Shown here one piece after another: positions 2,857-23,617 of a stretch of DNA of 23,617 nucleotides. Source of the stretch: an uncultured virus (IMG/VR IMGVR_UViG_3300032167_004205) (lineage: Duplodnaviria; Heunggongvirae; Uroviricota; Caudoviricetes); the IMG/VR virus record IMGVR_UViG_3300032167_004205; one strand, 5' to 3'. The position numbers and the translations under genes were made by a program. The notes below the pieces were generated by a model. It was not told where the DNA came from. It made no database searches and worked only from the letters and a program-made list of their open reading frames with translations. Every line of letters starts with the position of its first letter. Positions within the stretch are counted from its first letter, which is position 1.

Positions 2857-2877
2857 CCTTTCGTGGAGAGATGCTAA

Positions 2878-3431: not shown

Positions 3432-3460
3432 TTAAAACTACATAGCAGGAGTGATTCAAC

Positions 3461-6028: not shown

Positions 6029-6045
6029 TAGGAGGAAACACCATA

Positions 6046-6606: not shown

Positions 6607-6618
6607 GGAGATAAAGTC

Positions 6619-6699: not shown

Positions 6700-6723
6700 A
6701 ACTAAAGGAAGGACGTGTAGCGA

Positions 6724-9137: not shown

Positions 9138-9725
9138 ATGAGCGATGATGAGATAATCGTTGTTGATGCTGAGATTATCGAAGACATTCCAGACTATAAT
9201 GTGGCGGTACCGGTCGTGAATCCGGAAGATCTTCCGGAAGGCGCTGTTTCGGCACCGGACCCTAAGCGATTACGACAAGGTTATTTCCAGAAGGGGGGGA
9301 GGGGAGGCCCCGGCCGGAAACGGATCTACCAAACCCCCGAAGAAATGGAAGCCGTCTGTAATGATTATTTTATGAGTCTCCTGGTAGCCGTACATAATCC
9401 CACGACCGGTCAGATGGATTACAGCTGGAAGACGGCACCGACCATTCCAGGGTTAGCCCGAGCGTTGGGCATGACTTCTGAAGCTCTCCGCTTATACGGA
9501 CTCCGTGATGAGTTTGGTGACGTGGTGGAATGGGCCAAGGACGTCATCCGTGAATATCTGGAGACCGGCGTTGTACAGCCAGGGAACCAGTCCGGGAAAA
9601 TATTCGTGATGAAGAACCTGGGTTATTCCGATACCAAAACCTATACATTCGCCCCGCCTTCCAGATTGGCGGCAGCGCAGTCTCCAGAAGAGATCGCGAA
9701 GCTGGTGGATGAAGATATCGTATAA
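9138..9725 (+). CDS. terS: Terminase small subunit (P22 gp3-like DNA-packaging protein family)
   Basis: GR..IYQTPEEMEAVCNDYF...PTIPGLARALG...YG.RDEF...AK...LE...IFVMKNLGYSD resembles gp3-type small terminases. Confidence 0.8.
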   Translation: MSDDEIIVVDAEIIEDIPDYNVAVPVVNPEDLPEGAVSAPDPKRLRQGYFQKGGRGGPGRKRIYQTPEEMEAVCNDYFMSLLVAVHNPTTGQMDYSWKTAPTIPGLARALGMTSEALRLYGLRDEFGDVVEWAKDVIREYLETGVVQPGNQSGKIFVMKNLGYSDTKTYTFAPPSRLAAAQSPEEIAKLVDEDIV

Positions 9726-9729: not shown

Positions 9730-9761
9730 ATTAGGCTCAGTCGTAACAAACTGGGCCTAAT
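9730..9761 (+). terminator. Hairpin after terS (possible terminator, weak U-tract)
   Basis: ATTAGGCTCAGT / ACTGGGCCTAAT 12-bp stem with one G-U pair and an 8-nt loop. Confidence 0.45.
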
Positions 9762-9793
9762 GTTACATGATTATTACATTTCTGCCAGAATTA

Positions 9794-9822
9794 TTGACTT
9801 TACTAAAGATCGTGAATAAAAT
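9794..9822 (+). promoter_or_regulatory. SigA-type promoter of the S-layer gene
   Basis: TTGACT (9794-99), 17 bp spacer, TAAAAT (9817-22); implies a ~210-nt 5' UTR. Confidence 0.65.
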
Positions 9823-10039: not shown

Positions 10040-13000
10040 ATGAGCAACATCAAAAAGCTGCTCGCTCTGGTCCTCGCTCTGACCATGGTCCTCTCCGTCT
10101 CCGCCATCGCTGGCTACACCGTCGCTCCCTACGGCGACGCTGCCAAGGTTGACGAAGACTGCGAGGAAGCCGTCCAGCTGCTGTACAGCCTGGATATCAT
10201 GAAGGGCGACGACAAGGGCAACTTCAACCCCGAAGCCACCATCACCCGTGCTGAGATGGCTAAGATCATCTACGTCATTCTGAACTATGGCGAGGATGAC
10301 AAGGCTATCAACTACACCGGCGCCAACATCTTCTCCGATGTTAAGGCTGGCGATTGGTACGAGGGCTACGTCAACTACTGCGCTACCATTAAGCTGGTGC
10401 AGGGTCGTGGCGACGGCTCCTTCGCTCCCAACGCCCCCATCACCACCGCTGAGGCTGCCAAGATGCTGCTGACCGCTATCGGTTACTCTGCCGAGAACCG
10501 TGGCTACATCGGCGCTGGCTGGGACAAGCAGGTCCTGTCCGATGCTTCCATCATCGGCCTGCTGAATGACTACAACTACAACACCACCGGCTACGCTCCC
10601 CGTCAGTGGGTTGCCGTCATGGTCAAGAACGCTCTGACCGAGGCTTACACCTACGGCACCATCGCTCCCGTTATCTTCAACGGTCTGCTGACCGGTACCA
10701 ACCTGCCCACCGCTTCTTATCAGAAGATGGGCTGGAAGTACTTCGGCCTGTACGCTTGGGAAGGTATCATCACCGCTAACGAGTACGCTGACCTGTACAG
10801 CAAGGCTGCCCTGAGCGCTTCCAACACCAAGATCAATGATGGCGAGTATGTCTTCAAGAACTGGACTACCGACCTGACCGAGATCGGTGAATATCGTCGT
10901 GGTTGGGCTGTCGAAGACGGTTCCAAGGATCTGGTTGTCTACGCTACCGATGACGGCGTGAACACTGAGTTCTCCTGCGGCGGCGCTGTCACCATCAAGA
11001 AGGCCAACATCGACGGCATCAAGCTGGATAGCAAGACTGTCTACTATCAGAACTTCGAGAGCACCAAGGCTTATGAGGCTGACGATTACGTCGCTAAGGG
11101 CGATTGGCTGCGCGTTGTTGATAACGACGATGACGGCACTGCTGAGTTCGTCTTTGTCACCGAGTTCACCATGTCTTCCGTCAGCAAGATCACCAGCAGC
11201 AAGCTGACTCTGGTTGATGTTTCTGCTACCGAAGACTTTGCCACCGATTCCGAACTGGCTAAGGGCGACATCGTTGTCTACACCTATATCGATGGCACCT
11301 ATTATGTTGAGGCCGCCAATGAGTTCTCTGGCGAAGTCGACAAGTACGCTTACAAGAACAAGACCCTGACCGTTGATGGTGAGGATTACGATCAGACTGA
11401 GATCGATGTCGTTGAGGGTCTGGACTACTACTATGAGCTGGAAGCTGCCCGCAAGGAGACTGAGTACACTTATTATCAGGACTTCTTCGGCAACATCGGT
11501 CTGTTTGGCCGTGACAAGGCTGATGCTGGTGAGCTGGTCCTGCTGACCGATGCTTACTATGCTAACGACCGTTACGGCAAGATCGCCGCTGTCGACGCTT
11601 ATCTGGATGGCGAGATCACCGATACCGACGTTAAGACTTCTTCTTCCACCGATTGGGATCTGTTCATCGACAACACTGGTGTCAGCAATAACAACTGGGG
11701 CAAGCTGATCGAGTACGCCGACGATAAGAACGCAAACACCAACGTTGCTCGCTACACCATGGATGATGAAGGTGTTCTGTCCCTGTACACTGCCCAGACC
11801 TGGGATTATGACCACAAGGGCAACAAGGACTACGTCGTCTCCGACTATGTCGACATCGAGATGGGCAACAAGGATTGGGAAGCTGGTCAGACCGCTTACA
11901 CTGGTGAGTATGTCATCAGAACCTATGATGACGACGGCAAGCTGGTTTCTACCACCAAGGAGTCCGTTCAGGTTCAGGCCAACCGCGACACTGTCTTCTA
12001 CTATGTCTCTTACGCCAACGGTTATCCCGTCGTTGAGACTGTTGTTGGTTACAAGAACAGCTACGACGTGAACAAGGAACTGGCTGGCGAGATCTACGCC
12101 ACCTACGCTGTTGCTACCAACGTTTCTTCCGAGTACGGCAACCTCGACGGCGATGACATGGACGAGGATGTCTACAAGTACTGGGTTGCTGATGTCATCG
12201 TTATCGAGACCAAGTATCCCGTGTTCGCTATGAACAGCGACGTGGTTCTGGGCTATGACGTTGTCAACAAGACCTATGATGACTATGCTGCTCTGGACGT
12301 CATCGCTGCCGATGCCACTCTGGACACCCTGCAGGTCATCAACAAGGACGGCGACAAGTACAACAGCTTCAAGCAGGACGGCATTGATGTTCTGGACTTC
12401 TACTGGAACACCGAGGATGAGGAAGGCGACTCTTACATCAAGAGCATTCCCGCTGACAAGTATGGCGCTTATGACATCTATGTCGGCACTCTGGGCCGTA
12501 CTGCCAAGCTGAAGGACTATGTTGTGACCACTGATAACACTGTCCTGTACTACGATGCTGAGACCGTTGTTGTCTACGACATCTACGAGGGTACCCGTTA
12601 CAACGGCATCACCACCGAGGATGACGATGATGAGACTCTGACCCTGTCCAAGGGCAAGACCTACATCTTCTTTGCTCCCGATAAGGAAGTTGTCTATGCT
12701 GTTCTGGTCGACGATGTTCTGACCATGGAACTGTATGACAAGATCGCTGGTGAGGGTAGCGTTACTGCCGATCAGGCTGCCGCCATCGCCGCTCTGCGTG
12801 AGTATGCTGCCGCCGCCGCTAAGGCCAACCGCATTGCTGCTGACCACAAGGACGTCGTCGCCGCTCTGGATAAGGAGATCGAGAACGTCAAGGCCGCTAA
12901 GACCGCTGACGAGATCGAAGATATCGTGAAGAACGATAACGAAAAGAAGGAGTTCGGCACTGGTATCCAGAACATCTGGGATGCTGCCTATGCCGCTGGT

Positions 13001-13279
13001 CAGGTTGCTAATGCCGATGCTAAGGCTGAGCTGAATAAGATTGTTGCTGCCATCAATGGCGCCACTGTCTATGTTGATGCCGAAGATTCCATCACCAGCC
13101 AGGTTGCTGATGAGGTTGAGGCTATCTACGCCGCTGCCTCTTACGACGTTACCGTTGCTATGGGCAAGTACAACATTCCCAACGACGGCCACGGTGTTGA
13201 GATTGCCGAGGCTGATGTGACCATCTGGTACGGCGAGCTGGTTGGTTTCGCCAAGGTGACCGTTCGTATCGCTTACTAA
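10040..13279 (+). CDS. SLH-domain S-layer-type protein (probably the major surface protein)
   Basis: Signal peptide MSNIKKLLALVLALTMVLSVSAIA; SLH repeats (IMKGDDKGNFNPEATITRAE, LVQGRGDGSFAPNAPITTAE); acidic, Tyr/Val/Thr-rich body; very strong codon bias; RBS AGGAGG supports ATG 10040. Confidence 0.9.
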   Translation: MSNIKKLLALVLALTMVLSVSAIAGYTVAPYGDAAKVDEDCEEAVQLLYSLDIMKGDDKGNFNPEATITRAEMAKIIYVILNYGEDDKAINYTGANIFSDVKAGDWYEGYVNYCATIKLVQGRGDGSFAPNAPITTAEAAKMLLTAIGYSAENRGYIGAGWDKQVLSDASIIGLLNDYNYNTTGYAPRQWVAVMVKNALTEAYTYGTIAPVIFNGLLTGTNLPTASYQKMGWKYFGLYAWEGIITANEYADLYSKAALSASNTKINDGEYVFKNWTTDLTEIGEYRRGWAVEDGSKDLVVYATDDGVNTEFSCGGAVTIKKANIDGIKLDSKTVYYQNFESTKAYEADDYVAKGDWLRVVDNDDDGTAEFVFVTEFTMSSVSKITSSKLTLVDVSATEDFATDSELAKGDIVVYTYIDGTYYVEAANEFSGEVDKYAYKNKTLTVDGEDYDQTEIDVVEGLDYYYELEAARKETEYTYYQDFFGNIGLFGRDKADAGELVLLTDAYYANDRYGKIAAVDAYLDGEITDTDVKTSSSTDWDLFIDNTGVSNNNWGKLIEYADDKNANTNVARYTMDDEGVLSLYTAQTWDYDHKGNKDYVVSDYVDIEMGNKDWEAGQTAYTGEYVIRTYDDDGKLVSTTKESVQVQANRDTVFYYVSYANGYPVVETVVGYKNSYDVNKELAGEIYATYAVATNVSSEYGNLDGDDMDEDVYKYWVADVIVIETKYPVFAMNSDVVLGYDVVNKTYDDYAALDVIAADATLDTLQVINKDGDKYNSFKQDGIDVLDFYWNTEDEEGDSYIKSIPADKYGAYDIYVGTLGRTAKLKDYVVTTDNTVLYYDAETVVVYDIYEGTRYNGITTEDDDDETLTLSKGKTYIFFAPDKEVVYAVLVDDVLTMELYDKIAGEGSVTADQAAAIAALREYAAAAAKANRIAADHKDVVAALDKEIENVKAAKTADEIEDIVKNDNEKKEFGTGIQNIWDAAYAAGQVANADAKAELNKIVAAINGATVYVDAEDSITSQVADEVEAIYAAASYDVTVAMGKYNIPNDGHGVEIAEADVTIWYGELVGFAKVTVRIAY

Positions 13280-13412: not shown

Positions 13413-14912
13413 ATGAGTACGTCAATAAGCACAGTGATTGATGTTCGCTTATTCGGGGCATTGGAATTGGAGAGTGAACAAGGTTGCCTGGTCGAGAGCC
13501 GTGGGGACAAACCACGCCTTTTTTTGCTGCTGAAATATTTGTTGTTGGAGCCTCAGCGAGAAGTCGATCAGGAAGAAGTGCTCCAACAAGTATGGAACGA
13601 TAGGCCGGTGGTCGGCTGCACAGGTAGGGTTCGGTTGCGCCGTTTACGAGAAACGTTGGAATTTCTTCAGCCGGAAGGTGGCAATAGCCTCATAAACTTC
13701 CAAGCCGGAAAATACAGCCTTAATCCTGATTACACATTGCGTTTTGACACAGATGTTTTTTTATCACTGCTGAAACAATCGGAAAACTTCTCTTTGACCG
13801 ATCCGGAAGGTCTGAAGCTCTGCCAGGATGCCCTGGAGTTGTTTCGCGGCCCTCTGTTAGAATATACCAAAAATGCACCTTGGTTGACAGGGTACCGGAA
13901 TTATTATCTGCGTGAGTTTATCCGCTTGGGTCGTGAAATGCTGAAGCGGATGAGAGCAATGAACGTTACTGAACCGGTGCAGCCGCTTTGTTCCCAAGCA
14001 CTCATGCTTGTTCCTGAGGACGAAACACTGCATAGAGATATTATTGAGTTTCTGATGGATAACCAGTTGGGGAAGGAATTAATCCAGCACGTGAAGTCGC
14101 TGATTTCTACCGATAAAGCCAAGTGGTTGTATGCTGTTCAGGATCCCAAACTGAAAGAAATGACAGGGTGTGAAGAACTATCCGAGGATCCTCATATAGT
14201 TCATATCAAGCTTTTTGGTGATGTTGAGCTACGTAACATTTATGGTCATCTCATTGAAAATCGTTCCAGGACGCCGTTTCTTTTACTGAAATATCTACTG
14301 ATGAATCCCCGGAAAGAAATAACAACGGATGAGATCTTACAGCTGTGGCCACCCATGAGCCCGGACTCTAATCCGCAGGCTACCGTGACGATCCGGCTGA
14401 CGCGGGCCAGAAGCGCCCTGGAGCCGTTGAAACTGAATAAGAAGACCGGACTTATTAGCTACCACAAAGGCATATACAAGATCAATCCCTCCTATATCCT
14501 CAAACGAGACGTTGATGAGTTCGGGGATATCTTGAGTTCGTTGCCATCTTATAACCTGAATGATCCGGAGGGTCTGAAAGCCTGTATGGATGCTCTGGAA
14601 TTATTCCGAGCCCCCTTGATGGCCTATACCAAAAGCGCCCCCTGGCTGGAGGAGTACCGCAGCCGTTACCGGGATGAGTTCTGCCGTTTGACCGAGGAAA
14701 CACTGAACCGGATGAAAGCGCTAGGGACCGATGAAGCGCTGCCCTTGCTGACGCAAAGGGCTGTAGACGTTGCGCCAGAGTGTCAGGAACTTCACGAGCC
14801 AATCATCCAATATCTCACAGAGCAAAAGAAAGAGTTGGAGATGATCAGATATCTTTCTTCGCTCTCGCGAACCGGAAAAGCAAATTGGATAGGAAAACCC
14901 CTCCTCGTCTGA
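13413..14912 (+). CDS. SARP/AfsR-like transcriptional regulator with two tandem wHTH+BTAD modules
   Basis: Two homologous halves: VRLFGALEL..FLLLKYLL..YSLNPDY..DPEGLKLCQDALELFRGPLL..APWL versus IKLFGDVEL..FLLLKYLL..YKINPSY..DPEGLKACMDALELFRAPLM..APWL. ALELFRG..L...W and PEDETLH are BTAD-like. Confidence 0.82.
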   Translation: MSTSISTVIDVRLFGALELESEQGCLVESRGDKPRLFLLLKYLLLEPQREVDQEEVLQQVWNDRPVVGCTGRVRLRRLRETLEFLQPEGGNSLINFQAGKYSLNPDYTLRFDTDVFLSLLKQSENFSLTDPEGLKLCQDALELFRGPLLEYTKNAPWLTGYRNYYLREFIRLGREMLKRMRAMNVTEPVQPLCSQALMLVPEDETLHRDIIEFLMDNQLGKELIQHVKSLISTDKAKWLYAVQDPKLKEMTGCEELSEDPHIVHIKLFGDVELRNIYGHLIENRSRTPFLLLKYLLMNPRKEITTDEILQLWPPMSPDSNPQATVTIRLTRARSALEPLKLNKKTGLISYHKGIYKINPSYILKRDVDEFGDILSSLPSYNLNDPEGLKACMDALELFRAPLMAYTKSAPWLEEYRSRYRDEFCRLTEETLNRMKALGTDEALPLLTQRAVDVAPECQELHEPIIQYLTEQKKELEMIRYLSSLSRTGKANWIGKPLLV

Positions 14913-14928
14913 TAACAGGAGGGGTTTT
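14894..14928 (+). terminator. Terminator hairpin overlapping the regulator stop codon
   Basis: AAAACCCCTCCT ... AGGAGGGGTTTT 12-bp stem. Confidence 0.7.
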
Positions 14929-15009
14929 GCAGGGTGAAGTATAATCGTAACCAACAGTATTTTGAGTCACCGCTCATATTTTTTTATTTTTTTTATTTTT
15001 TTGAAAAAA

Positions 15010-15054
15010 GTAACTCAATTTGTACCTGTTCGCGTAACCAAAGAATGGTATAAT
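15010..15054 (+). promoter_or_regulatory. Putative activator-dependent promoter: 12-bp-spaced GTAACC-like repeats plus extended -10
   Basis: GTAACT (15010), GTACCT (15022), GTAACC (15034), then TGGTATAAT (15046-54); same geometry as the sipW promoter. Confidence 0.7.
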
Positions 15055-15114
15055 ACATGCAAAAAAAGATGGTAGCTTCAAGCTTACCCGTGCCGAGGCT
15101 GTGCTCATCGACAA

Positions 15115-15130
15115 ATGTAAGCGCTTACAT
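15115..15130. promoter_or_regulatory. Perfect cre-like / LacI-family operator palindrome
   Basis: ATGTAAGCGCTTACAT is a perfect 16-bp palindrome matching the CcpA cre consensus TGWAANCGNTNWCA, downstream of the -10. Confidence 0.7.
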
Positions 15131-15194
15131 ATTATTTAATAATAAAGTATACCTTTATTTATAAATAGTTCGGGAAACCGAAAAAGGAGGAATT

Positions 15195-18100
15195 ATGATG
15201 AAAAAACGTTTTTGGGCGTTGTTCCTTGCGGTCATGATGATCGTCAGCGTCCTGCCCACGACGGCGTTCGCTGCAGACGAAGAGGTAGACAAGAATTTGC
15301 AGCCCGATCCACGGTATTACAGTTTTGCAGGTAAAGAATTAGACAAAGACGAGGCAGACAATGCCGACATTACCTTGAGCAAGACTGCGGAGTATATTGG
15401 TGATGGGAAATATGAAATCACCTTGTCTGTAGATGCAGGCGCGCAGATTTTACCGAAGCCTACAGAGGTCGTATTTGTGTTAGATGCATCTGGTTCTATG
15501 AATTTCTGTACAGATGTAAGTGGGTATGAGTCGCATAGTCACGATGCATGGGGTCAATGTGGTTATAATTCTTCCACCGAAACGTGTAATTTTCTGAAAG
15601 AACATAAGCACGTTCACACTTGGGATCGAAACAGCATCGCATATTGTACTCTGACGAGATCCGGCGACAAAGATAGCCGCTGGGATGACGCGACAGCTGC
15701 GATTGAGTCTATGAAAGACAAGATCGGCACGGAAAACATTACCTATCGTTATGTCTATTTCAAAAGCGTGCAGAACAACCATGGTGGATGGCCTAATGTT
15801 GCTTATGAAGTATCTTCGTATAGTGAGATTTCTCCCGGTGGTGGCACCCCGCTTTATTTAGGTGTTGAAGAGGGTATTGACTGCTTCACAGAAGATCCTA
15901 TGAGCAATAAAGTTTTGATTATTGTAGCAGACGGAGCAGCGGATAAGGTAGAGGGTAAAGGAACATATCCCAAAAGCATCTGTGATAATTTTAAAGCTAT
16001 TGCTGGAAACACCATTTATACAGTCGGCTTCACGTTTAGTGACAAGGACTTTAACGACTTGGCCTCTGAAGGTTGTGACTTTACGGCCGGCAATGCAGAT
16101 GACTTGGAGCTGGCGATGGACACCATCAGTAAAAAGATTTCTGGCATGATCGTTGACCCGATGGGTGATGGCGTTACTTTGGACAACGCCTCCATTGAGA
16201 TTAATCAGAATCAAGCTGGTATTAATGTCAATGACGGTACCATAAACTGGAGTGACGCAAAGGGCATTTCTGGCAAGGTCACCATGACATATAATGTCAC
16301 TGTTAATGTCGATGAAGATGAAGATCATCAGGAAATCCCCCTCAACGGTGACGCAAAACTTCATTACACCTATACAGGTGAAAACGGTGATGAAAAAAGT
16401 TGCTCGATTAGCTTCCCGGTTCCCGTTGCAGTCATTCAGAAAGAACCCGAGATTTTTAATGTGACCTATTTCTTCGAGAGCGGCACTGAAGGCAAGGCTC
16501 TGCCTGCTGCCATTAATGAGTATCTGCCTGCTGTCGGTACTGCTCTGAATGGTGACACTGTCAAACCTGCAACGCCCGAGCAGACTACCTATGAGGCTGT
16601 AGACGGCACCTGGACCTTTAATGGTTGGGATTACGACAGCCTGATCGTTGCCGGCGATGATATTGAGTTCGTTGGTACTTGGTCCTTCGAAATTGCCAAG
16701 TATGACTACACTGTCGAATACTACTATGACGGTGTGATTGATAGCGCCAAGACCGAAACCCTCTCTGCTGAATACGGTGCGAAAATCAATGAGTATGAGG
16801 ATAAGAGTGGAAACGAGTTCATGCTTGAAAGTCACACCGCTCCCATCATCATCGGCGCCGAAGCTTCTGAAAACGTCATCGAAGTCTATTATGTCACCGA
16901 TGTCTGGAATGATGAAAAGGATAAGCTTGAAGGCGGTGACAAGATTCCCGATAAGCATCAGGTTTGCGTCGAGTATGTGAGCAGTGACGCAACGAAGGGA
17001 ACGGTCACTCCCGCCCTGGATGTCATTACCTTATATGCCGCCACAGGTGCTTATGCCACTGTTGGTGATGTAACTACTTCCGAAGCTACTGCTACTGCTA
17101 TCGAGGGCAACGGCTTCAAGAACTGGACTGATTACAACAGTGCTGTAATGGAAGGCGAAGACGAAACTCTGTCCGTGCAGACCATCAAAGATGCTGAAGG
17201 CGGCGAGACCTATACTTACACTGCCATCTTCAGTGCTGCAACGCAGCCCGGTGTTGTTAAGATCCCCTATTATATCGAGCATTATCAGGAGCAGCTGGAC
17301 GGCACCTACGTCAAGGCTGAAACTGAGACCAAGTTTGATGTTAAGGATCAGGAAATCACCATTGTCGATGCAGACTATAAGTCTTATGCAAATTATGCCC
17401 CCAATAAGACGCATGCCAGCGCAGTATTGAGCGGCAAGGTTGATTATTCTGTCGACCCCACTGGAGGAGATACTCCTGTTGTCACGATGCTGACCCTGAA
17501 GCTGTACTATGATCTGGATAAGTACACTGTGACTTTCGTTGACGAGGACGGCACCATTCTGGAGGCTGCTACTGAGTATGCATACGGCACCAAGGCTGCA
17601 GATATCGTCAAACCCGCCAATCCCACCAAGGCCGCTGATGCTGATTATACCTACACCTTCTCTGGCTGGACGCCCGCCATTGCTGATGTCACAAACCATG
17701 CTACCTACAAAGCTACTTACAGCGCGACTCCCCGTGAGGCGAAGCTGAGTGTTGCAGATAAGGTCCTTAAAACCACTGACGAAATCAATGAAGGCTCTGT
17801 AATCGCCTGGAAGATCACTGTTCAGAATGATGGCAATAAGGACGCGCAACTTGTGGCCGGCCTGATTTCTGATACGATCTACTATGGCGACACGGAAAAT
17901 GGTCCCTGGACTGTTCTGGAAGGTGCTTCCGTGACCTTCCCCGAAACCCTGCCTGTTGTTGAAGCTGGCAAGACTGCTGAAATCGAGGTTACCTGGATCG
18001 TTCCCGCCTCTGTTGTCGGCAAGTACATCAAGAACGCCGCCAAGGTCAACGGTGAAGAAGGCAGCAAGGAAACTCCTCCCGCTTATGTTGTCCCCGAGCC

Positions 18101-19238
18101 CGGTGTCTCCATCACCAAGGTTGCCGATGACACCTCCGTCTATGTTGGCGAAAAGATCACCTACACCATCGTTGTCACCAATACTGGTAATGTGGATCTA
18201 ACTAATGTGGTTGTCACCGATGACTTCATCAAGGGTGGCGATCAGGATCGTACTTGGACTATCGACAAGCTGACAGTCAAGGAGAGCAAGACCTTTACCT
18301 TCGAGTATAAAACAGTCTACGCTGACCGCAACGGTCTGTCGAACGTGGCGATTGCCGATTCCAAAGAGACTGACCCCAAGACCACTGATTCTGTGTACGT
18401 GGAAGTGGAAGTGGAACGTGAGTATGATCGTCCCGACCCCAAGCCTGCACTGAACAAGGAAGACCACTACGCTTACATCGTGGGCTATCCCGATGGCTTG
18501 GTCCATCCCGAGCGAAACATCACCCGCGCTGAAGTTTCCACCATCTTCTTCCGCATGCTGCTGGATGAGAGCCGTGAAGACTTCTGGTCTCAGGAGAACT
18601 GGTTCTCTGATGTTCCCGCTGATCAGTGGTACAACAACGCCGTGTCCACTCTGTCCAATGCCGGTCTGATCACCGGTTATCCCGATGGCAGCTTCAAGCC
18701 CAACGCCAACATCACCCGCGCTGAGTTCGCTACCATCGCCATCCGCTTCTTCCTGGAAGAGGATGTGGAGATCACCGAGAATAACCTGACTGACATCAAG
18801 GGCCATTGGGCTGAGGCAAACATCAATCTGGCTTATGCTCTGAACCTGATCAATGGTTATCCCGATAACACCTTCCGTCCTGACCAGAAGATCACCCGTG
18901 CTGAGGCTATGACCATCGTCAACCGCGTCCTGGAACGCCATCCTCACGAGGATCACCTGCTGGAAGATATGATCGAATGGCCGGATAACATGGATACTGA
19001 CGCTTGGTACTATGCCGACGTTCAGGAAGCCACCAACTCTCACGAGTTCTATAAGACTGAGATCAAGGGCGAGGATGAGGAATACGAGGTCTGGACCGAG
19101 CTGCTGCCCGTCCGTGACTGGGCCGCTCTGGAACGTGAGTGGTCTCAGGCCAACTCCTCCAAGAACCCTGGTGAGGTGGTTGATATCAATATCAACACTC
19201 CTGAAGCCGGAAACAACGGCACTCTGAAACTCAATTAA
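15195..19238 (+). CDS. Large SLH-anchored multidomain surface adhesin (vWA, SHIRT-like, MucBP/InlB-B-like, DUF11-like, SLH repeats)
   Basis: Signal peptide ending TTAFA; vWA MIDAS VFVLDASGS, GGTP, IIVADG, IYTVGF; SHIRT-like FESGTEGKALP..GTWTFNGW; YTFSGWTP repeat; ITYTIVVTNTGNVDLTNVVVTD; C-terminal SLH motifs (GYPDG..PERNITRAE, GYPDGSFKPNANITRAE, GYPDNTFRPDQKITRAE). Confidence 0.88.
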   Translation: MMKKRFWALFLAVMMIVSVLPTTAFAADEEVDKNLQPDPRYYSFAGKELDKDEADNADITLSKTAEYIGDGKYEITLSVDAGAQILPKPTEVVFVLDASGSMNFCTDVSGYESHSHDAWGQCGYNSSTETCNFLKEHKHVHTWDRNSIAYCTLTRSGDKDSRWDDATAAIESMKDKIGTENITYRYVYFKSVQNNHGGWPNVAYEVSSYSEISPGGGTPLYLGVEEGIDCFTEDPMSNKVLIIVADGAADKVEGKGTYPKSICDNFKAIAGNTIYTVGFTFSDKDFNDLASEGCDFTAGNADDLELAMDTISKKISGMIVDPMGDGVTLDNASIEINQNQAGINVNDGTINWSDAKGISGKVTMTYNVTVNVDEDEDHQEIPLNGDAKLHYTYTGENGDEKSCSISFPVPVAVIQKEPEIFNVTYFFESGTEGKALPAAINEYLPAVGTALNGDTVKPATPEQTTYEAVDGTWTFNGWDYDSLIVAGDDIEFVGTWSFEIAKYDYTVEYYYDGVIDSAKTETLSAEYGAKINEYEDKSGNEFMLESHTAPIIIGAEASENVIEVYYVTDVWNDEKDKLEGGDKIPDKHQVCVEYVSSDATKGTVTPALDVITLYAATGAYATVGDVTTSEATATAIEGNGFKNWTDYNSAVMEGEDETLSVQTIKDAEGGETYTYTAIFSAATQPGVVKIPYYIEHYQEQLDGTYVKAETETKFDVKDQEITIVDADYKSYANYAPNKTHASAVLSGKVDYSVDPTGGDTPVVTMLTLKLYYDLDKYTVTFVDEDGTILEAATEYAYGTKAADIVKPANPTKAADADYTYTFSGWTPAIADVTNHATYKATYSATPREAKLSVADKVLKTTDEINEGSVIAWKITVQNDGNKDAQLVAGLISDTIYYGDTENGPWTVLEGASVTFPETLPVVEAGKTAEIEVTWIVPASVVGKYIKNAAKVNGEEGSKETPPAYVVPEPGVSITKVADDTSVYVGEKITYTIVVTNTGNVDLTNVVVTDDFIKGGDQDRTWTIDKLTVKESKTFTFEYKTVYADRNGLSNVAIADSKETDPKTTDSVYVEVEVEREYDRPDPKPALNKEDHYAYIVGYPDGLVHPERNITRAEVSTIFFRMLLDESREDFWSQENWFSDVPADQWYNNAVSTLSNAGLITGYPDGSFKPNANITRAEFATIAIRFFLEEDVEITENNLTDIKGHWAEANINLAYALNLINGYPDNTFRPDQKITRAEAMTIVNRVLERHPHEDHLLEDMIEWPDNMDTDAWYYADVQEATNSHEFYKTEIKGEDEEYEVWTELLPVRDWAALEREWSQANSSKNPGEVVDININTPEAGNNGTLKLN

Positions 19239-19246
19239 ACCTTATG

Positions 19247-19277
19247 AAAAGGCCGCCCAAAAGGGCGGCCTTTTTTT
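19247..19277 (+). terminator. Rho-independent terminator
   Basis: AAAAGGCCGCCC-AAAA-GGGCGGCCTTTTTTT. Confidence 0.92.
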
Positions 19278-19331
19278 GTACTCCTATTATATAATAAGCG
19301 GTTTTTTTCATAAAATACTTGACCTTCGATA

Positions 19332-19360
19332 TTGAAAACCCCGAATATTCGTGCTATTCT
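19332..19360 (+). promoter_or_regulatory. Candidate SigA promoter for the AP2 gene
   Basis: TTGAAA (19332-37), 17 bp spacer, TG-C-TATTCT (19352-60). Confidence 0.45.
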
Positions 19361-19421
19361 CATTTTGTATTTTAGCGCAAAGTAGCAGAGTTTCCAAACT
19401 GGAAGTCGACGGAGGATGATC

Positions 19422-20315
19422 ATGCAGCAGTCAAACACCAATTATGATCTCACTGGACGGCTTTTTGGCGCGCTGAAAGCCGAGGAACTGGTGGACGGTG
19501 TCAATTCCAAAGCTCGATGGCGGTGCACCTGTGCGTGCGGCCAAGAGAAGATCGTATCCTATCGCAATCTCGTATACGGTAAGACAAAATCCTGTGGCTG
19601 TGTACGTGCTGCAAAAGCGATTAAAGACCTGACAGGCAAGCGGTTCGGTCGTTTGGTCGCACAAGAACGGCTTCCTGACAAACGGGACGGCTCTTACCTC
19701 TGGCGGTGCCTGTGTGATTGCGGCGGAGTGGCTTTTATCACAGCAGTTGCGTTAACAAAAGGGCAGGCCAAAAGTTGCGGCTGCCTAGCAATAGAGGCAA
19801 AACGTGCGCGTGCTTCCGACTTAAAAGGGAAGCGCTTTGGCCGACTCACCGCGATCGAGCCGACCGAAAGCCGCAGCGAGAACGGTGGCGTCATCTGGCG
19901 GTGTCTGTGCGACTGTGGAACGGAAAGTTTCCAAATAGCGTCTGTCCTGTGTAACGGTGGAGTAACCAGCTGCGGTTGTAAGCATAAGGAAAACGATTCG
20001 CTGCAGCGTTCGTTAGATTATATAGACGGCACATGCGTTCAGTTCCTTCAACAAACAGGTAAGATTCGATCTGATAGTACCAGTGGTGTCCGTGGTGTAT
20101 CCCTGCATAAAGGGAAATGGCGTGCGCGGATAACCTTTAAAAAGGAAACCTATTATCTCGGCGAATATGATGATATTGAAAAGGCGATTAAGGCCCGAAA
20201 GAAAGCAGAAGGCCTTCTGTTCGGTGAGTTTCTTGATTGGTATAACGCTACTTTCCCAAATAAGGAAAAAGAAGACGGTCAGAGCACCGTAGTTAACACC
20301 AAAAGCACAAACTGA
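19422..20315 (+). CDS. AP2-domain DNA-binding protein with three Cys-rich repeats (related to HNH-AP2 proteins, no HNH motif seen)
   Basis: Three ~63-aa repeats DL.G..FG.L.A.E...WRC.C.CG...G...SCGC; C-terminal STSGVRGVSLHKGKWRARITFKKETYYLGEYDDIEKAIKARKKAE is AP2-like; GGAGG favours ATG 19422. Confidence 0.8.
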   Translation: MQQSNTNYDLTGRLFGALKAEELVDGVNSKARWRCTCACGQEKIVSYRNLVYGKTKSCGCVRAAKAIKDLTGKRFGRLVAQERLPDKRDGSYLWRCLCDCGGVAFITAVALTKGQAKSCGCLAIEAKRARASDLKGKRFGRLTAIEPTESRSENGGVIWRCLCDCGTESFQIASVLCNGGVTSCGCKHKENDSLQRSLDYIDGTCVQFLQQTGKIRSDSTSGVRGVSLHKGKWRARITFKKETYYLGEYDDIEKAIKARKKAEGLLFGEFLDWYNATFPNKEKEDGQSTVVNTKSTN

Positions 20316-20418
20316 ATATTTTTTCACGAACCTGCTCGTGCCACTTCGTCGCTGCACGGATTACAGGCGACAATTCCATGTACTGATAAACTTATGTTAA
20401 TAATGTCACATCTATCAC

Positions 20419-20448
20419 AAGACCCAGCTCTTTGGCTGGGTCTTTTTT
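20419..20448 (+). terminator. Rho-independent terminator
   Basis: AAGACCCAGC-TCTTTG-GCTGGGTCTT-TTTT. Confidence 0.88.
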
Positions 20449-20488
20449 AGCGTAATTATTAAATTTCTTTGAACGAAAAAACGCTAAA

Positions 20489-20522
20489 TATAACCGTTCG
20501 TGTAACCGCGCAGTGCTATAAT
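20489..20522 (+). promoter_or_regulatory. Putative activator-dependent promoter of the sipW operon
   Basis: ATAACC (20490), GTAACC (20502), TGCTATAAT (20514-22); shares GTTCGyGTAACC-N6-TGnTATAAT with 15028-15054. Confidence 0.7.
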
Positions 20523-20643
20523 GGTAAAAGAACGGGGGTATTATGCCCTTTTTGCATCAAAAGGATGCATCGCGATACATTTTTATTCCAAAGAAACAAA
20601 CTTTTTCCGCCAGGCGGAAAAGAGAACAGGAGCAAACAATTAC

Positions 20644-21198
20644 ATGAAAGCACTGAAAACCGTCTGGAATGTGATCACCACCGTTTTGGTCACGTTAGTC
20701 GTCGTTCTGGCTATCCTGCTGGTGGGCGTTCGTGTGGTAGGCCTGACCCCCTATGTGGTACTGTCCGGTTCCATGGAGCCTACGTATCATACCGGCTCTC
20801 TGATCTATGTAAAAAAGGTAGATCCCTTTGCCATTGAAGCAGGAGACCCGATTACCTTCATGCTCTCGGAAGATACTATCGCAACCCATCGAGTGGTTGG
20901 CGTAGTTCCTGATGAGAACGACAGCACCGTCATTCGGTTTCGCACCAAAGGCGATGCTAATGAAGCTGAGGATGGCACCCTGATCCATTATAAAAATGTC
21001 ATCGGTTCGCCTGTGTTCTCCATTCCTTACTTAGGTTTTGTAAGTAACTACATCACCAATCCTCCCGGCATGTATATCGGCTTCACTGTGCTGGGTTTGA
21101 TTATCCTGATGCTCTTTGCTCCCGATCTTCTGAAGGCCGCCGACGCTGCCGACAAAAAGGCTGAGGAAAAGAAGAAGGGAAGTCACGAAGCCGAATAA
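20644..21198 (+). CDS. sipW: ER-type signal peptidase I (SipW)
   Basis: N-terminal TM helix, VLSGSMEP (Ser), ATHR (His), TKGDAN..D, C-terminal TM helix; RBS AGGAG before ATG 20644. Confidence 0.92.
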   Translation: MKALKTVWNVITTVLVTLVVVLAILLVGVRVVGLTPYVVLSGSMEPTYHTGSLIYVKKVDPFAIEAGDPITFMLSEDTIATHRVVGVVPDENDSTVIRFRTKGDANEAEDGTLIHYKNVIGSPVFSIPYLGFVSNYITNPPGMYIGFTVLGLIILMLFAPDLLKAADAADKKAEEKKKGSHEAE

Positions 21199-21265
21199 CC
21201 TCCGCATCCCTTAATCCCCGGTGTTACCCGAAAGGGTTCACATAAAATCCCATGATTCCCTGCGC

Positions 21266-21351
21266 TGTCATCGCGAGCCGTCGCAGACGGCGTGGCGATC
21301 CGCATCTTCAAAGAAACGGATTCCAGCGTCGCTTCGCTCCTCGGAATGACA
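21266..21351. repeat. REP-like / REPIN-like palindromic element
   Basis: Inverted halves TGTCATCGCGAGCCGTCGCAGACGGCGTGGCGATCCG and (reverse complement) TGTCATTCCGAGGAGCGAAGCGACGCTGGAATCCG, separated by 14 nt. Confidence 0.7.
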
Positions 21352-21402
21352 AAAACAAGTCTTCAATTCAAAATTTTTGATAACCGAAAGGAGAAAAACG
21401 AA

Positions 21403-22047
21403 ATGAAGAAGAAAACAATCGCACTGCTGCTGGTCCTGATGATGATCTTTGGCGTCACCTGCGGCGGCACCATCGCCTACCTGACCTCCACCACTGACAC
21501 CATCACCAATACCTTTACCGTTGGTAATGTCACCATCACTCTGGATGAGGTTCTGGTTACCGCTTACGGTGAAAAAGGTAAGGAAGTTATCAAAACTGTT
21601 GATGGTAAAGAGGTTACCACTATTGAGAAACTGGCTGAGGGTGACAAGGAAACTCGCGTAACTTCTAACGAATACAAATTGATCCCCGGTCATACCTACA
21701 CTAAGGATCCTACCATCCATGTGGATACCAACTCTGAGAACTGCTGGCTGTTCGTCAAGGTTGTTGATGAAATCGCCGATATCCAGGATACTACTACTGT
21801 TGCGGCTCAGATGGCATCTAATGGTTGGACTGCAGTTTCTGGTGAGACTAATGTCTATGCTTACAAGAAAATTGTTGAGGCTGGTGAGGATGCTCCTATT
21901 TTTGCCAACTTCAAGATTAAGGGCGATGCTGCTGTTGATAAGTATACTGGTAAGACAATCTCTATCATTGCTTACGCTATCCAGGCTGACAGCTTTGATA
22001 CTGCTGCTGATGCTTGGACTGCTGCTCCCTCCAACTGGACCAAGTAA
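21403..22047 (+). CDS. SipW-dependent (TasA/CalY/camelysin-like) secreted protein 1
   Basis: MKKKTIALLLVLMMIFGVTCGGTIA|YLTSTTDTITNTFTVGNVTITLDE is a SipW-cognate signal peptide; LIPG...KDPTI and IIAYAIQA motifs. Confidence 0.88.
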   Translation: MKKKTIALLLVLMMIFGVTCGGTIAYLTSTTDTITNTFTVGNVTITLDEVLVTAYGEKGKEVIKTVDGKEVTTIEKLAEGDKETRVTSNEYKLIPGHTYTKDPTIHVDTNSENCWLFVKVVDEIADIQDTTTVAAQMASNGWTAVSGETNVYAYKKIVEAGEDAPIFANFKIKGDAAVDKYTGKTISIIAYAIQADSFDTAADAWTAAPSNWTK

Positions 22048-22118
22048 CAATCAGCTACCCGTTTTATTTGATTCGCAAAAATCTAACATAAAACACTTCT
22101 GAAAAGGAGAACCACAAA

Positions 22119-22865
22119 ATGAAAAAGAAACTGACTGCAGTCGCTCTGATCGTCTGCATGCTGGCCATCATGCTGGTCGGCGCTTCTCTGGCTTATTTTA
22201 CTGATACTGCTGAAGCCGAGAACACCTTTACCGTCGGTAGCGTTAAAATCGAGATGACCGAGACTGATGCTTCTGGTGCCGAGTTTAAGCAGGATCAGGT
22301 CCTGATGCCCGGCAAGGAAAATGCCATCGAGAAGGTTGTTACCATCAAGAATACCGGCAAGAGCAACGCTTGGATCTGGGCTGAGGTTCTGATTCCCGCC
22401 GCTCTGGACGATAATGATGACAACTCTCCCGAAGCTCCCGGTCTGGGCAACAGCCTGCATGTCAACTATCCCGGTATGTATGCTAAAGAGTATGCACAGA
22501 ATCAGGATGCCAACGCCAAGTTCTACAACACCGATCTGACCAAGCTGTGGGTTATGCAGCATAATGCTGATGGCCTGAGCTACGGTTATGCTGGCACCGA
22601 GACCGTTGATGGCGTTGTTTACAATAAGTTTGTCAAGTTCTATACTGATGAGCTGAAGCCCAATGAGACTACTCCTGCTTTCATGAGCCAGGTTTATATG
22701 GACGCCAAGGTCACCCAGGGCGAGAATGATGCTTACATTCTGGCTGATGGTAAGACCTCCTACACTGGTTCTTGGGAAGTTCTGGTTCGCGGTTATGCTA
22801 TGCAGGCTGCTGGTTTCGATTCCGCTGTGGAAGCTTACGTCGAATACAACAAGCCCGCTCAGTAA
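22119..22865 (+). CDS. SipW-dependent (TasA/CalY-like) secreted protein 2
   Basis: MKKKLTAVALIVCMLAIMLVGASLA|YFTDTAEAENTFTVGSVKIEMTE; LMPG..IEKVVTIKNTG; GYAMQA. Confidence 0.9.
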   Translation: MKKKLTAVALIVCMLAIMLVGASLAYFTDTAEAENTFTVGSVKIEMTETDASGAEFKQDQVLMPGKENAIEKVVTIKNTGKSNAWIWAEVLIPAALDDNDDNSPEAPGLGNSLHVNYPGMYAKEYAQNQDANAKFYNTDLTKLWVMQHNADGLSYGYAGTETVDGVVYNKFVKFYTDELKPNETTPAFMSQVYMDAKVTQGENDAYILADGKTSYTGSWEVLVRGYAMQAAGFDSAVEAYVEYNKPAQ

Positions 22866-22878
22866 TTATTACTTACCC

Positions 22879-22941
22879 ACGGCTCCCCGCTCCTGCGGGG
22901 GCCGTACCCAAGCATCTAACCCATTTTTAGGTGCTTGGGTA
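22879..22941 (+). other. Two adjacent strong intergenic hairpins (attenuator or mRNA-stabilising)
   Basis: ACGGCTCCCCGC/GCGGGGGCCGT (22879-22905) and TACCCAAGCATCTAA/TTAGGTGCTTGGGTA (22905-22941). Confidence 0.6.
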
Positions 22942-23012
22942 TGGCCATTTTCAGCCATCTTTTCATTCGTTAATAATAATATTGAAAATAGAAGTCAAAG
23001 GAGGACACGCGC

Positions 23013-23617
23013 ATGAAAAAGAAACTACTTTCCCTTGCGCTGATGACCATCTTCATCTCCCTGATGGCGCTGGGCAGTGCGGCGTTTTTCACCAAAGACG
23101 CGTACACCACCAACATCATCACCACCGGCACGGTGAGCCTGCTGCTGGATGAACATCTGGCAGAGGACCAATGGACCGCCGTCACCGATCAGGTGGGCGA
23201 GCAGGAGGTCATCGTTGCCTATGCGTTCAATGACCCCGTGATGCCTGGTGTCAAGGTGGAAAAGAAACCCACCATAAAAAACAACGGCTCTCAGCCCTTC
23301 TTCCTCCGTGCAAAGGTAGAGAAGACGGTTGTCGCCGCCGACAAAGTGACCGGCAAGGATGCCAGCGTTGTGCTGATTGAGTGCCTCGACGGCTGGCAGT
23401 TGAATGAGGACGGCTGGTGGTATTACACCAAGAAGGATGCCTCTGACGCCGTCAACCCCGGCGATGAGATCACCCTGTTTGACGGCGTGATGCTCGACCC
23501 CAAAACCGGAAACGATTATCAGAACTGCACCGTGACCATCTCGGTCCGGGCGCAGGCAGTCCAGAGCAAGAACCAGACCGACGGCCAGGGCAAGGCCATT
23601 TTGGATTCCCCCGCCGC
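23013..23617 (+). CDS. SipW-dependent (TasA/CalY-like) secreted protein 3, running off the window end
   Basis: Own translation: MKKKLLSLALMTIFISLMALGSAA|FFTKDAYTTNIITTGTVSLLLDE...VMPGVKVEKKPTIKNNGS...DGWWYY...AQAVQS; RBS GAGG; no stop codon in the window. Confidence 0.88.
   Translation, partial: MKKKLLSLALMTIFISLMALGSAAFFTKDAYTTNIITTGTVSLLLDEHLAEDQWTAVTDQVGEQEVIVAYAFNDPVMPGVKVEKKPTIKNNGSQPFFLRAKVEKTVVAADKVTGKDASVVLIECLDGWQLNEDGWWYYTKKDASDAVNPGDEITLFDGVMLDPKTGNDYQNCTVTISVRAQAVQSKNQTDGQGKAILDSPA

Follow-up and report, generated by a model that had tools for sequence, protein, structure and literature searches.

Two regulatory-looking halves in one protein, a vWA/SLH adhesin and a sipW operon lie clustered in the 23,617-nucleotide stretch analysed here (the window), which raises the question of whether they form one regulon and one surface structure. 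The initial annotation proposed both: a double SARP activator acting on adhesin and sipW promoters that share a motif, and a TasA-like fibre coupled to the adhesin. Profile searches and motifs showed that the regulator, the adhesin, sipW and the three TasA-like genes are real (Table 1), and we asked how they are controlled, whether they are physically joined and on what kind of DNA they reside.

Table 1. Positions of the features in the window and the evidence by which each was assigned.
Feature	Position	Strand	Evidence
Phage replication module: SSB, helicase, primase-helicase, two DNA methyltransferases	252..8925	+	ORF sequence; primase by PHROGs
Terminase small subunit (terS)	9138..9725	+	GP3_package E 1e-14; phrog_606
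S-layer promoter: 11-bp direct repeat 15 nt 5' of TTGACT/TAAAAT	9761..9822	+	
S-layer protein, 1079 aa, N-terminal SLH	10040..13279	+	
Tandem (2x) SARP regulator, 499 aa, without sensor domain, clade B	13413..14912	+	Pfam, tree, structure model
Adhesin promoter: three RTAACC-like repeats, 12-bp period (15010, 15022, 15034), 9 nt, TG-extended TATAAT	15010..15054	+	
Self-anchored adhesin, 1347 aa: Sec signal, vWA/MIDAS, GBS104-like Ig, SHIRT, DUF11, three SLH	15195..19238	+	
AP2/HNH-like DNA-binding protein	19416..20315	+	AP2 E 1e-3; phrog_374 E 2e-61
sipW promoter: ATAACC/GTAACC, 12-bp period, 9 nt, TG-extended TATAAT	20490..20522	+	
SipW-type (Ser-His) signal peptidase	20644..21198	+	TIGR02228; SGSMEP41, THR81
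TasA/BsaA-like pilin 1, donor strand, N-E-K triad	21403..22047	+	TIGR04088
TasA/BsaA-like pilin 2; N35, E48, K72	22119..22865	+	Profiles, model, motif
TasA-like pilin 3, cut by window end	23013..23617	+	Motif, synteny

Results

The surface genes adjoin a phage module

Three virus records (G001-G003) match the window identically, and its left 9.7 kb, overlooked in the initial annotation, is phage DNA. The block of surface genes begins directly behind terS, a junction spanned by one contig each in runs X2 and X5. The element contains terL, portal, tail and lysin genes as well as Rep3, iterons, ParA, MobC and a relaxase, that is, both the virion genes and the plasmid replication and partition genes that mark a phage-plasmid; its tape measure protein is only 846 aa long. 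Thirteen of the 15 element proteins looked up, with both flanks represented, share one longest contig of 99,725 bp. The known sequence amounts to 66.6 kb, about 33 kb being unseen, and does not close on itself; the element may be an extrachromosomal circle that includes the surface genes.

The nearest phage-plasmid relative seen, G006, has a 126-nt terminal overlap and resembles the element in its virion module, ParA, relaxase and gene order (terS-9 kb-terL-portal); terL is 78% and terS 45% identical. The gene order of the replication module is also repeated there. Whereas G006 has small genes in the terS-terL gap and tRNAs in the terL-portal gap, these gaps in the element are filled by an S-layer gene together with adhesins and two systems of pili. 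The surface block would be phage-plasmid cargo of Oscillospiraceae from the animal gut, sited between terS and terL, with the sortase pilus between terL and portal, and this cargo may be a patchwork of chromosomal-type cassettes retaining their native promoters. Scans of viral contigs with pilin 3 and sipW gave no match, and phage-borne sipW was seen nowhere else. Plasmid and phage collections returned only distant terL and SipW matches except for MT835649.1, a sipW operon in which no phage genes were recognised.

The double SARP groups with S-layer-linked regulators

An S-layer gene, likewise missed at first, precedes the regulator and is followed by a terminator (13317-13340). Its promoter pattern occurs in 33 of 401 family genomes (control, 2); of 30 loci with the pattern, 26 have it ahead of an S-layer-like gene. 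The regulator gene has its own promoter-like site (13351-13379) and a hairpin behind it (14895-14927).

Trans_reg_C and BTAD were each found twice in the regulator, above the Pfam cut-offs and in the SARP order of OmpR-type winged helix followed by BTAD; the two halves are 42% identical to each other. AfsR/EmbR structures made up the top six Foldseek matches of its model (E 3e-6 to 5e-5). A profile scan of genome contigs yielded one true relative among nine loci, and a scan of metagenomes yielded 51 loci with weak matches. In the tree, the double SARP falls into the S-layer-linked clade B, apart from the box-linked clade A described below (branch support 1.00). The helix word K[TA]xx[HYF]R is present in 34 of 35 clade-A domains and in none of 43 clade-B domains; the window regulator lacks both this word and a C-terminal degenerate GGDEF domain with RxxD, and retains the recognition-helix Arg. 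Its single-domain relatives follow S-layer genes and not box-led ones, and the double SARP would have arrived together with the S-layer gene. We also considered the repeat in the S-layer promoter as a double SARP site, which is unsupported because, among the SARPs found, clade B is represented in only 2 of the 33 genomes with the pattern.

The sipW operon encodes putative donor-strand pilins

The signal peptidase exceeded the cut-off of TIGR02228 (101 bits) and fell below that of the Bacillus SipW equivalog NF046067. Two of the three pilins matched the SipW-cognate signal peptide profile TIGR04088, and all three share the cleavage and donor pattern. The N-terminal consensus (Y/F)(L/F)T...N..T.G.V.(I/L)..E proposed earlier describes them well save for its last gap, which spans three residues between I/L and E, not two. 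For Peptidase_M73, pilin 2 scored above the cut-off (25.7 against 22.5 bits) and has homologues named as TasA family, pilin 1 scored below it and pilin 3 gave no match; the BsaA profile TIGR04090 stayed below its cut-off. Pilin 2 was modelled as a beta-sandwich (pLDDT 88.7) with residues 1-13 of the mature chain disordered. A PDB sequence search with it found no match, and its structural matches were weak: the TasA fibre 8aur ranked tenth (E 2.6e-3, TM 0.35), below integrin Ig domains, and a second comparison reached a best Z of 6.5 with TasA absent among the matches listed. Asn, Glu and Lys residues of a conserved triad occur in 106, 103 and 101 of 109 pilins, respectively, and all three in each window pilin, with Glu at N+13 as against N+21 in BsaA.

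We identified sipW in 46 of the 401 sampled genomes, about one in ten. In chromosomes, a sipW operon comes with genes for a tip, bearing a C-terminal donor-strand motif in 22 of 27 cases (controls, 0 of 29), and for a base that combines an acceptor domain with an SLH or LPXTG-like anchor. SLH anchoring of such fibres is supported in relatives. Many of the tips contain vWA domains, and the pilin 3 orthologue directly precedes the tip adhesin; the tip and base genes of the element are predicted to lie past the window end, the tip as a large ORF with W[LFI]x7Nx[FWAY] at its C-terminus. One candidate base, the SLH fragment at the end of G003, was set aside, its sequence, judged by eye, being of a different SLH type.

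These features suggest how the fibre would be built. SipW would cleave the pilins at A|Y/F and free an N-terminal strand, which would complete the following subunit's Ig-like fold; by analogy with BsaA, an isopeptide bond between Asn and Lys probably locks the donated strand in place. Assembly via donor strands would start at a tip adhesin donating its C-terminal strand and end on an acceptor-only base held by an SLH or LPXTG-like signal. The SipW, pilin and S-layer genes support the proposal that a clostridium with an S-layer makes a TasA-type fibre independently of sortase.

The adhesin shares a promoter motif with the fibre but not its assembly signals

The three SLH domains, SHIRT, DUF11 and the GBS104-like Ig domain of the adhesin all exceeded their Pfam cut-offs. 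The VWA match was weak and below cut-off (E 0.054 for the whole protein, 0.004 for an N-terminal fragment), and the MIDAS words DASGS97, GGT216 and ADG245 occur in the proper order, giving the DxSxS..T..D pattern; a PDB sequence search with the vWA region returned nothing useful. Even at E values as high as 10 the protein showed no TasA-like domain, and a donor motif was absent throughout its length. The adhesin has neither the C-terminal donor motif of a tip nor the acceptor domain of a base and would therefore be co-regulated with the fibre, not attached to it; the coupling first proposed is not supported. It would be a separate adhesin, wall-bound through its own SLH domains. An AP2/HNH-like gene, one of several on the element and previously overlooked, separates the adhesin from sipW and is flanked by two terminator-like hairpins.

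An RTAACC box heads adhesin and pilus genes across the family

The adhesin and sipW promoter segments are identical at 20 of 27 positions, a value reached by 5 of 200 shuffles and modest on its own. The shared motif noted initially was nevertheless confirmed as an RTAACC box, which 21 of the 401 genomes of the family also contain, against none in the control; a third copy precedes the sortase pilus of the element (G003rc 4165-4197). In all three element boxes the hexamer lies 9 nt (or the heptamer 8 nt) from TATAAT. As at SARP targets, the repeats are direct and the 3' repeat is 8 bp from the -10, whereas the period is 12 bp instead of 11 or 22 bp; both 11 and 12 occur in chromosomes. Period 12 was found in 7 of 8 subclade-A1 genomes and in 0 of 11 others. 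It was also considered as a sign of a tandem SARP, an idea we rejected, as chromosomes with ordinary A1 SARPs have it too.

Box and SARP genes co-occur. Nineteen of the 21 box genomes are SARP-positive as against 72 of 380 others (16 of 18 box genomes without those seen beforehand), counts that are not independent of kinship and stem from a screen that overlooked at least two clade-A genes. The box lies 5' of sipW at 6 of 12 SARP-positive loci and at 0 of 28 other loci. At 20 further loci it heads a secreted adhesin, a pilus operon or a sortase gene in 15 cases, and all nine SARPs near the box there are of the ~400-aa type; LRxxD was present in 119/120 and 13/13 of this box-linked type. Across the family, the box is a promoter element of genes for adhesins and pili. 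Its likely reader is the ~400-aa type of SARP, whose degenerate GGDEF/RxxD domain is probably a c-di-GMP sensor.

On the element, the box would be a site of SARP type that extends over the -35 position and through which the adhesin, the sipW operon and the sortase pilus would be switched on jointly; the shared box supports the proposed co-regulation of adhesin and sipW. A conserved linkage of regulator, adhesin and sipW is not supported: of 40 sipW loci, two had a SARP within the stretch retrieved, each time a protein of ~420 aa. No clade-A SARP was found in the known 66.6 kb of the element, and none with the contig signature of the element was among the best 120 of 1,587 homologues. A clade-A reader would come from the host or from the unseen ~33 kb.

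Discussion

We regard it as somewhat probable that the surface genes are phage-plasmid cargo in which the wall adhesin and a TasA-type fibre are separate structures, a clade-A SARP reads the box and the double SARP is linked to the S-layer. The initial annotation had instead cast the double SARP as box reader. On this reading, the sensor-less double SARP would read the three boxes as a covalent stand-in for a side-by-side dimer and activate the adhesin and both pili irrespective of host c-di-GMP. It is the only SARP in 66.6 kb, adjoins a box-led gene, has a promoter-like site of its own, keeps the recognition-helix Arg and offers two DNA-binding units for a two-repeat site, in keeping with the side-by-side dimer of AfsR (PMC10936776). 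This role is nonetheless unlikely and unsupported because its clade differs from that of the box-linked SARPs and lacks their helix word; its single-domain relatives trail S-layer genes, ordinary A1 SARPs accompany the 12-bp period in chromosomes, and the exact box is absent from the two genomes, only two, in which clade B alone was found (G004 and G026). It is highly unlikely that an OmpR-type response regulator or the AP2/HNH-like proteins of the element act as box readers. The half-site TGTAAC of the box, which is reminiscent of the WalR box TGTWAH, and the AP2-like genes behind both the adhesin and the sortase operon point that way, but the 3' repeat has the SARP position, the box is tightly linked to SARP genes, and of 40 sipW loci only two have an AP2/HNH-like gene, both of them without a box.

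Cargo status itself may be questioned: in an integrated phage-plasmid, or a contig running from provirus into chromosome, the S-layer, regulator, adhesin and sipW genes would be host genes and only the sortase pilus cargo. IMG/VR indeed classes G003 as a provirus trimmed at the regulator's stop codon, the S-layer gene has strong codon bias (A3 0.02) and a chromosomal-type promoter, G006 carries a tyrosine recombinase beside terL, and even depth fits a lysogen as well as a plasmid. We doubt this possibility, since no tyrosine integrase or serine resolvase is found in G001/G003, no tRNA or junction repeat of at least 14 nt on the element and no recognised housekeeping gene within the known 66.6 kb, while Rep3, iterons and ParA are present, the longest contig of 99,725 bp is common to both flanks and an RTAACC box also lies inside the virion module. 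That the adhesin is joined to the fibre as tip or anchor is extremely unlikely: the common box, an SLH region 43-63% identical to that of operon bases and the vWA domains of operon tips speak for it, but it lacks the assembly signals, has an ordinary signal peptide, belongs to a separate transcription unit and, as a tip, would be fixed to the wall by its C-terminal SLH domains. More tentatively, a ~100-kb phage-plasmid may re-clothe its gut clostridial host with a new S-layer, a wall adhesin and two pili, one of sortase type and one of TasA type that is isopeptide-locked and has a C-terminal-donor tip. All adhesion genes would stand under a family-wide c-di-GMP-sensing SARP regulon that the sensor-less tandem SARP overrides or complements.

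Oscillospiraceae are abundant, mostly uncultured gut bacteria. Our analysis provides a testable parts list for a pilus encoded by roughly a tenth of the genomes sampled, a promoter box from which their adhesin regulon can be predicted and, outside actinomycetes, a candidate SARP activator responsive to c-di-GMP. Should the genes be cargo on a replicon, a temperate phage can transfer an S-layer and two pilus systems among gut bacteria, with consequences for colonisation and for changes of phage receptor. A self-locking pilus that needs no sortase, and whose tip and anchor can be exchanged, also offers a scaffold for display. Three points are new: tips that donate a C-terminal strand, the putative SARP regulon under c-di-GMP control and carriage on a phage-plasmid.

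Comparison with known systems

The combination of SipW, TasA-like proteins, a vWA protein and an activator is already known, although the initial annotation knew of no description: the Clostridium perfringens operon sipW-bsaA-bsaB-bsaC-bsaR-bsaS encodes SipW, several TasA-like proteins, the vWA protein BsaC and the activator BsaR, and resembles our reading in sipW-promoter activation and a sortase-independent donor-strand polymer (PMC7395162, PMC11580942). BsaA N35/F37 is in register with N35/F37 of pilin 2, and its K74 lies near K72. In the accessible portions of these reports, however, the activator is a two-component response regulator, the polymer is described as a membrane-held matrix, and no SLH base, C-terminal-donor tip or phage-plasmid is mentioned. 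The tapA-sipW-tasA system of B. subtilis (8aur) resembles the window in SipW processing and N-terminal donor-strand exchange, as predicted here from genes and motif; it differs in that TapA and SinR were not seen in the window, TasA lacks the N-E-K triad, and the window has several pilin paralogues with a predicted tip and base.

The tip, shaft and anchor logic is likewise known, from the TasA-superfamily fibre of haloarchaeal tafi with its acceptor-only anchor (PMC11821415); bacterial AbpX loci have SLH or LPXTG anchors and c-di-GMP enzymes (10.64898/2026.01.04.697558). As far as the available excerpts describe them, these systems use Tat export or a 10-TM peptidase in place of SipW, and TafC donates an N-terminal strand, whereas Oscillospiraceae tips bear the motif C-terminally. 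The window regulator shares the OmpR-type winged helix and BTAD with Streptomyces AfsR/EmbR (PMC10936776; 8hvr, 8k60, 2fez), and the promoters, in the parts of that source consulted, have direct repeats in common, the 3' one placed 8 bp from the -10. Unlike these proteins, it has two SARP units per chain and lacks NOD, TPR and FHA domains; the probable box reader differs by its degenerate GGDEF tail, and the element boxes by a period of 12 instead of 11 and by their adhesin targets.

Genes and shared promoter box

The regulator, the vWA/SLH adhesin, sipW and the three TasA-like genes named in the initial annotation, which proposed a double-SARP regulon coupling SipW/TasA-like fibres to an SLH-anchored vWA adhesin, are all present in the window. 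Profile searches bore out the BTAD domain of the regulator, which like Trans_reg_C occurs twice. The two halves are 42% identical, and the predicted structure (pLDDT 85, pTM 0.49) consists of two units joined by a loose linker, with AfsR and EmbR as best structural matches. In the adhesin, the SLH domains passed the cut-off and the MIDAS words are in order, while the VWA profile stayed under its cut-off. SipW passed TIGR02228; the SipW-cognate signal peptide (TIGR04088) was recognized in pilins 1 and 2 and not in pilin 3, and Peptidase_M73 in pilin 2 only, not in pilins 1 and 3.

Positions of features (L-numbers denote loci; G003rc is virus record G003 in window orientation)
Feature	Position	Remarks
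Tandem SARP regulator	window 13413-14912	Trans_reg_C x2, BTAD x2
Adhesin	window 15195-19238	three SLH, SHIRT, DUF11, GBS104-like tip-pilin Ig domain, all over cut-off
Poly-T tracts	window 14974-15009	
Inter-pilin palindromes	window 21268-21356; 22900-22946	
TGTTACA-type direct repeat	window 9761-9822	
Integrase-like genes	L109 13359-14360; L110 5497-6558	genome G026
Conserved protein of ~150 aa	L215 13416-13907 and 12 other loci	Atlas: hypothetical only
HNH-like/AP2 Cys-rich repeat genes	G003rc 1136-1756, 11331-12185, 35418-36805; window 19416-20315	
Inverted 163-bp segment	window 8935-9097; G003rc 32108-32267	
PemK/MazF-like ORF (presumed)	window 647-1042	after SSB
137-aa ORF	window 7070-7483	

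Hairpins and an AP2/HNH-like gene set the adhesin apart from sipW, so that the two form separate units. The promoter motif that they were said to share was recovered, with 20 of 27 bases in common (reached by 5 of 200 shuffles): RTAACC repeats at a 12-bp period are followed by 9 nt and a TG-extended TATAAT. A third copy of this box lies on the element 5' of a sortase pilus. A series of poly-T tracts lies just 5' of the adhesin box, where slipped-strand variation is possible. The palindromes between the pilin genes, the first a repeat with many copies in gut metagenomes (>3,000 as summed depth in metagenome run X2) and the second a 20-bp inverted repeat, may tune pilin stoichiometry.

We surveyed the box in 401 genomes of the family of genome G004, which is Oscillospiraceae to judge by the homologue names there, Oscillibacter and Limivicinus. 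Of these, 91 genomes gave a SARP match and 46 contained sipW, which occurred at 49 loci; 40 of the sipW loci were examined. The first scan, which was modelled on the element's copies, designed after sipW upstream sequences had been seen and so strict that it excluded the adhesin's site, placed the box 5' of sipW at 6/12 loci in SARP-positive genomes versus 0/28 in others (p 2e-4). A widened pattern matched 21 of the 401 genomes (reversed control, 0); 19 of these 21 were SARP-positive compared with 72/380 others, and 16/18 once genomes seen during pattern design were removed, although box/SARP p-values overstate independence, given the kinship of the genomes and the fact that the SARP screen overlooked clade-A genes (SARPs of ~400 aa) in genomes G018 and G158. 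At 14 of 20 further loci a pilus operon or a gene for a secreted adhesin-like protein comes within the next two or three genes behind the box; one locus leads to a sortase, one lies at a contig end and four are without adhesin, pilus or sortase. The vWA and GBS104-Ig architecture of the window adhesin recurs in several box-led adhesins. Often directly behind the box or beside a clade-A SARP lies a conserved protein of ~150 aa without Pfam family, a candidate co-regulator that was not found on the known part of the element.

Fibre architecture

In chromosomal operons, sipW is followed by two to four TasA-like genes and a large adhesin, often with MIDAS, and then often by another TasA-like gene and an anchor. 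In the numbering of mature pilin 2, N10 is conserved in 106, E23 in 103 and K47 in 101 of 109 TasA-like proteins, and all three window pilins have the full triad, while a strict alignment-free triad pattern matched only 45/109. Pilin 2 was modelled as a beta-sandwich whose residues 1-13 are disordered and whose fold matches TasA only weakly. At 22/27 loci the first large ORF behind sipW terminates in W[LFI]x7Nx[FWAY], compared with 0/29 control proteins; this C-terminal motif is in the same register as the donor strand of the pilins. Anchors start with a TasA-like domain, most without donor strand. In 10 anchor proteins this domain is fused to SLH and matches the pilin profile (E 2e-6 to 0.03; hhalign probability 80%), and in ~16 others it is combined with a C-terminal LPXTG-like signal and a membrane segment. 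These sequence features suggest an assembly in which the tip would be donor only, TasA-like subunits would form the shaft between tip and base, and the base would be acceptor only.

Reader of the box and standing of the adhesin

In a tree of 87 SARP domains, clade A stood apart from clade B (separating branch support 1.00, clade A's own node weak), and both halves of the window regulator fell within clade B, in which SARPs occur singly, doubled or tripled. Of the helix words, K[TA]xx[HYF]R is present in 34/35 clade-A and 0/43 clade-B domains, and [VIL]RLxR in 36/43 clade-B domains. According to the accessible part of PMC10936776, AfsR reads bases through T88 and R92; judged without alignment to AfsR, such a TxxxR pair appears to be kept in clade A and not in clade B. 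All nine box-near SARPs at the 20 loci belong to clade A, the extent examined at some loci having been chosen with SARP match positions already known. A 12-bp box period occurs in 7/8 A1-subclade genomes versus 0/11 others, in effect one evolutionary change. The clade-A C-terminus is a degenerate GGDEF domain (Atlas 0.95; Pfam over cut-off in 4/5 tested, four of the five having been picked for that tag). It carries LRxxD in 119/120 homologues and 13/13 box-linked proteins, and we take RxxD at this position to be a c-di-GMP I-site. Clade B is rare (22 close hits), with triple-SARP proteins P0006, P0007 and P0008. Among six single-domain clade-B loci examined, an S-layer gene immediately precedes the SARP in four and a truncated S-layer-like ORF in one, and the sixth is at a contig end.

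Another promoter element goes with S-layer-like genes: an 11-bp direct repeat of the TGTTACA type, placed 14-15 nt before the -35, was found in 33/401 genomes (control, 2) and leads such a gene at 26 of 30 loci (L243-L272). Beside each of two S-layer genes in G026 lies a gene that is integrase-like by sequence, at L109 between promoter box and S-layer gene, so that S-layer switching is possible.

The tree, the helix words, the box-near SARPs and the S-layer-linked clade-B loci therefore indicate that an A1-type SARP is the probable reader of the boxes and that the double SARP probably came in with the S-layer gene. That the double SARP itself controls the box-led genes, as initially proposed, fits its position next to one of them and the fact that no A1-type or other clade-A SARP was found on the known element sequence; we nevertheless consider it unlikely, since the regulator belongs to clade B and all nine box-near SARPs at the 20 loci to clade A. 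The common box stands, and its proposed reader is doubtful. Coupling of the fibre to the vWA adhesin was not borne out: the adhesin has neither a TasA-like domain nor a donor motif, which makes physical coupling highly improbable, and only the SLH module is common to it and the operon anchors. We therefore regard it as a co-regulated, self-anchored adhesin and predict the fibre's own tip and base genes just past base 23617.

Probable carriage of the genes on a phage-plasmid

The window is identical to virus records G001-G003. G003 (57.9 kb), in window orientation, runs from an SLH fragment through DUF4379, HNH-like and HTH genes to terL, a 1512-aa LPETG adhesin, major pilin and sortase, and from the portal through head, tail, amidase, MobC, relaxase, ParA/RHH and iterons to Rep3, behind which come the window's replication genes, terS, the S-layer gene and the regulator. 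The nearest relative, G006 (terL 78%, terS 45%), shares this gene order; its terS-terL interval contains 9 kb of small genes and its terL-portal interval tRNAs. It carries ParA and relaxase, and its ends overlap by 126 nt, followed by 6 unmatched bases. Neither a tyrosine integrase or serine resolvase nor a junction repeat of at least 14 nt was found in G001/G003. The longest contig for 13 of 15 element proteins looked up is 99,725 bp, and the element primase is linked to it through a cluster mate; the remaining protein, as delimited here, had no entry. At least half of the sampled element words were present in nine runs, which are all metagenomes of feces from a single year and may stem from a single campaign. 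One contig bridged the junction from terS to the S-layer gene start in each of two of the four runs examined, one of which may be the source sample, and unique element contigs were evenly deep in the bridging runs. We thus regard the element as a probable phage-plasmid with two cargo intervals; its size is at least 66.6 kb and probably ~100 kb. Integration as a provirus stays a real rival because the circle is not closed and IMG/VR classes G003 as a provirus.

A non-coding 163-bp segment occurs twice in inverted orientation (91%), 20 kb apart on either side of the plasmid and replication modules, and might reflect an inversion or a structured RNA. The element carries at least six HNH-like/AP2 Cys-rich repeat genes, and some sipW operons of chromosomes (L149, L152, L172) are flanked by genes of this kind and by DUF4379. 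The ORF after SSB is presumably PemK/MazF-like, by sequence and motif. The 137-aa ORF overlaps the large methyltransferase in a different frame.

Comparison with known systems

The arrangement had been thought undescribed, but the accessible parts of PMC7395162 and PMC11580942 already report sipW-bsaA-bsaB-bsaC(vWA) with the activator BsaR in C. perfringens. The open literature, subscription papers apart, yielded no account of this sipW operon of Oscillospiraceae, of a tip with a C-terminal donor, of an adhesin regulon under a SARP-dGGDEF protein or of a phage-plasmid that carries an S-layer gene and pili; such loci may be contained in the supplements of PMC11580942, which cover gene neighbourhoods and a triad list, or of the AbpX preprint. 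That preprint, as far as accessible, describes bacterial AbpX loci that combine c-di-GMP genes with SLH or LPXTG anchors (10.64898/2026.01.04.697558), and the E. faecalis WxL donor-strand pilus is unrelated (10.64898/2026.10.17.759780, in part). In the SARP promoter rule, as given in the available text of PMC10936776, the 3' repeat lies 8 bp from the -10; the box agrees in position, whereas its repeats recur every 11 or 12 bp, against 11 in the rule. BsaA donor-strand exchange is locked by N35-K74 with E56 (PMC11580942, accessible portion), while pilin 2 has N35, F37, E48 and K72. A tip/shaft/anchor logic has been proposed for tafi, where, in the part of PMC11821415 available, the tip donor is N-terminal, in contrast to the C-terminal motif in these operons. 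The initial observation is real and gains interest from its element context beyond the form first proposed: the SARP box is family-wide and was found with the cargo of a probable phage-plasmid, on which the predicted SipW-dependent pili are a new variant of the TasA/BsaA/tafi type.
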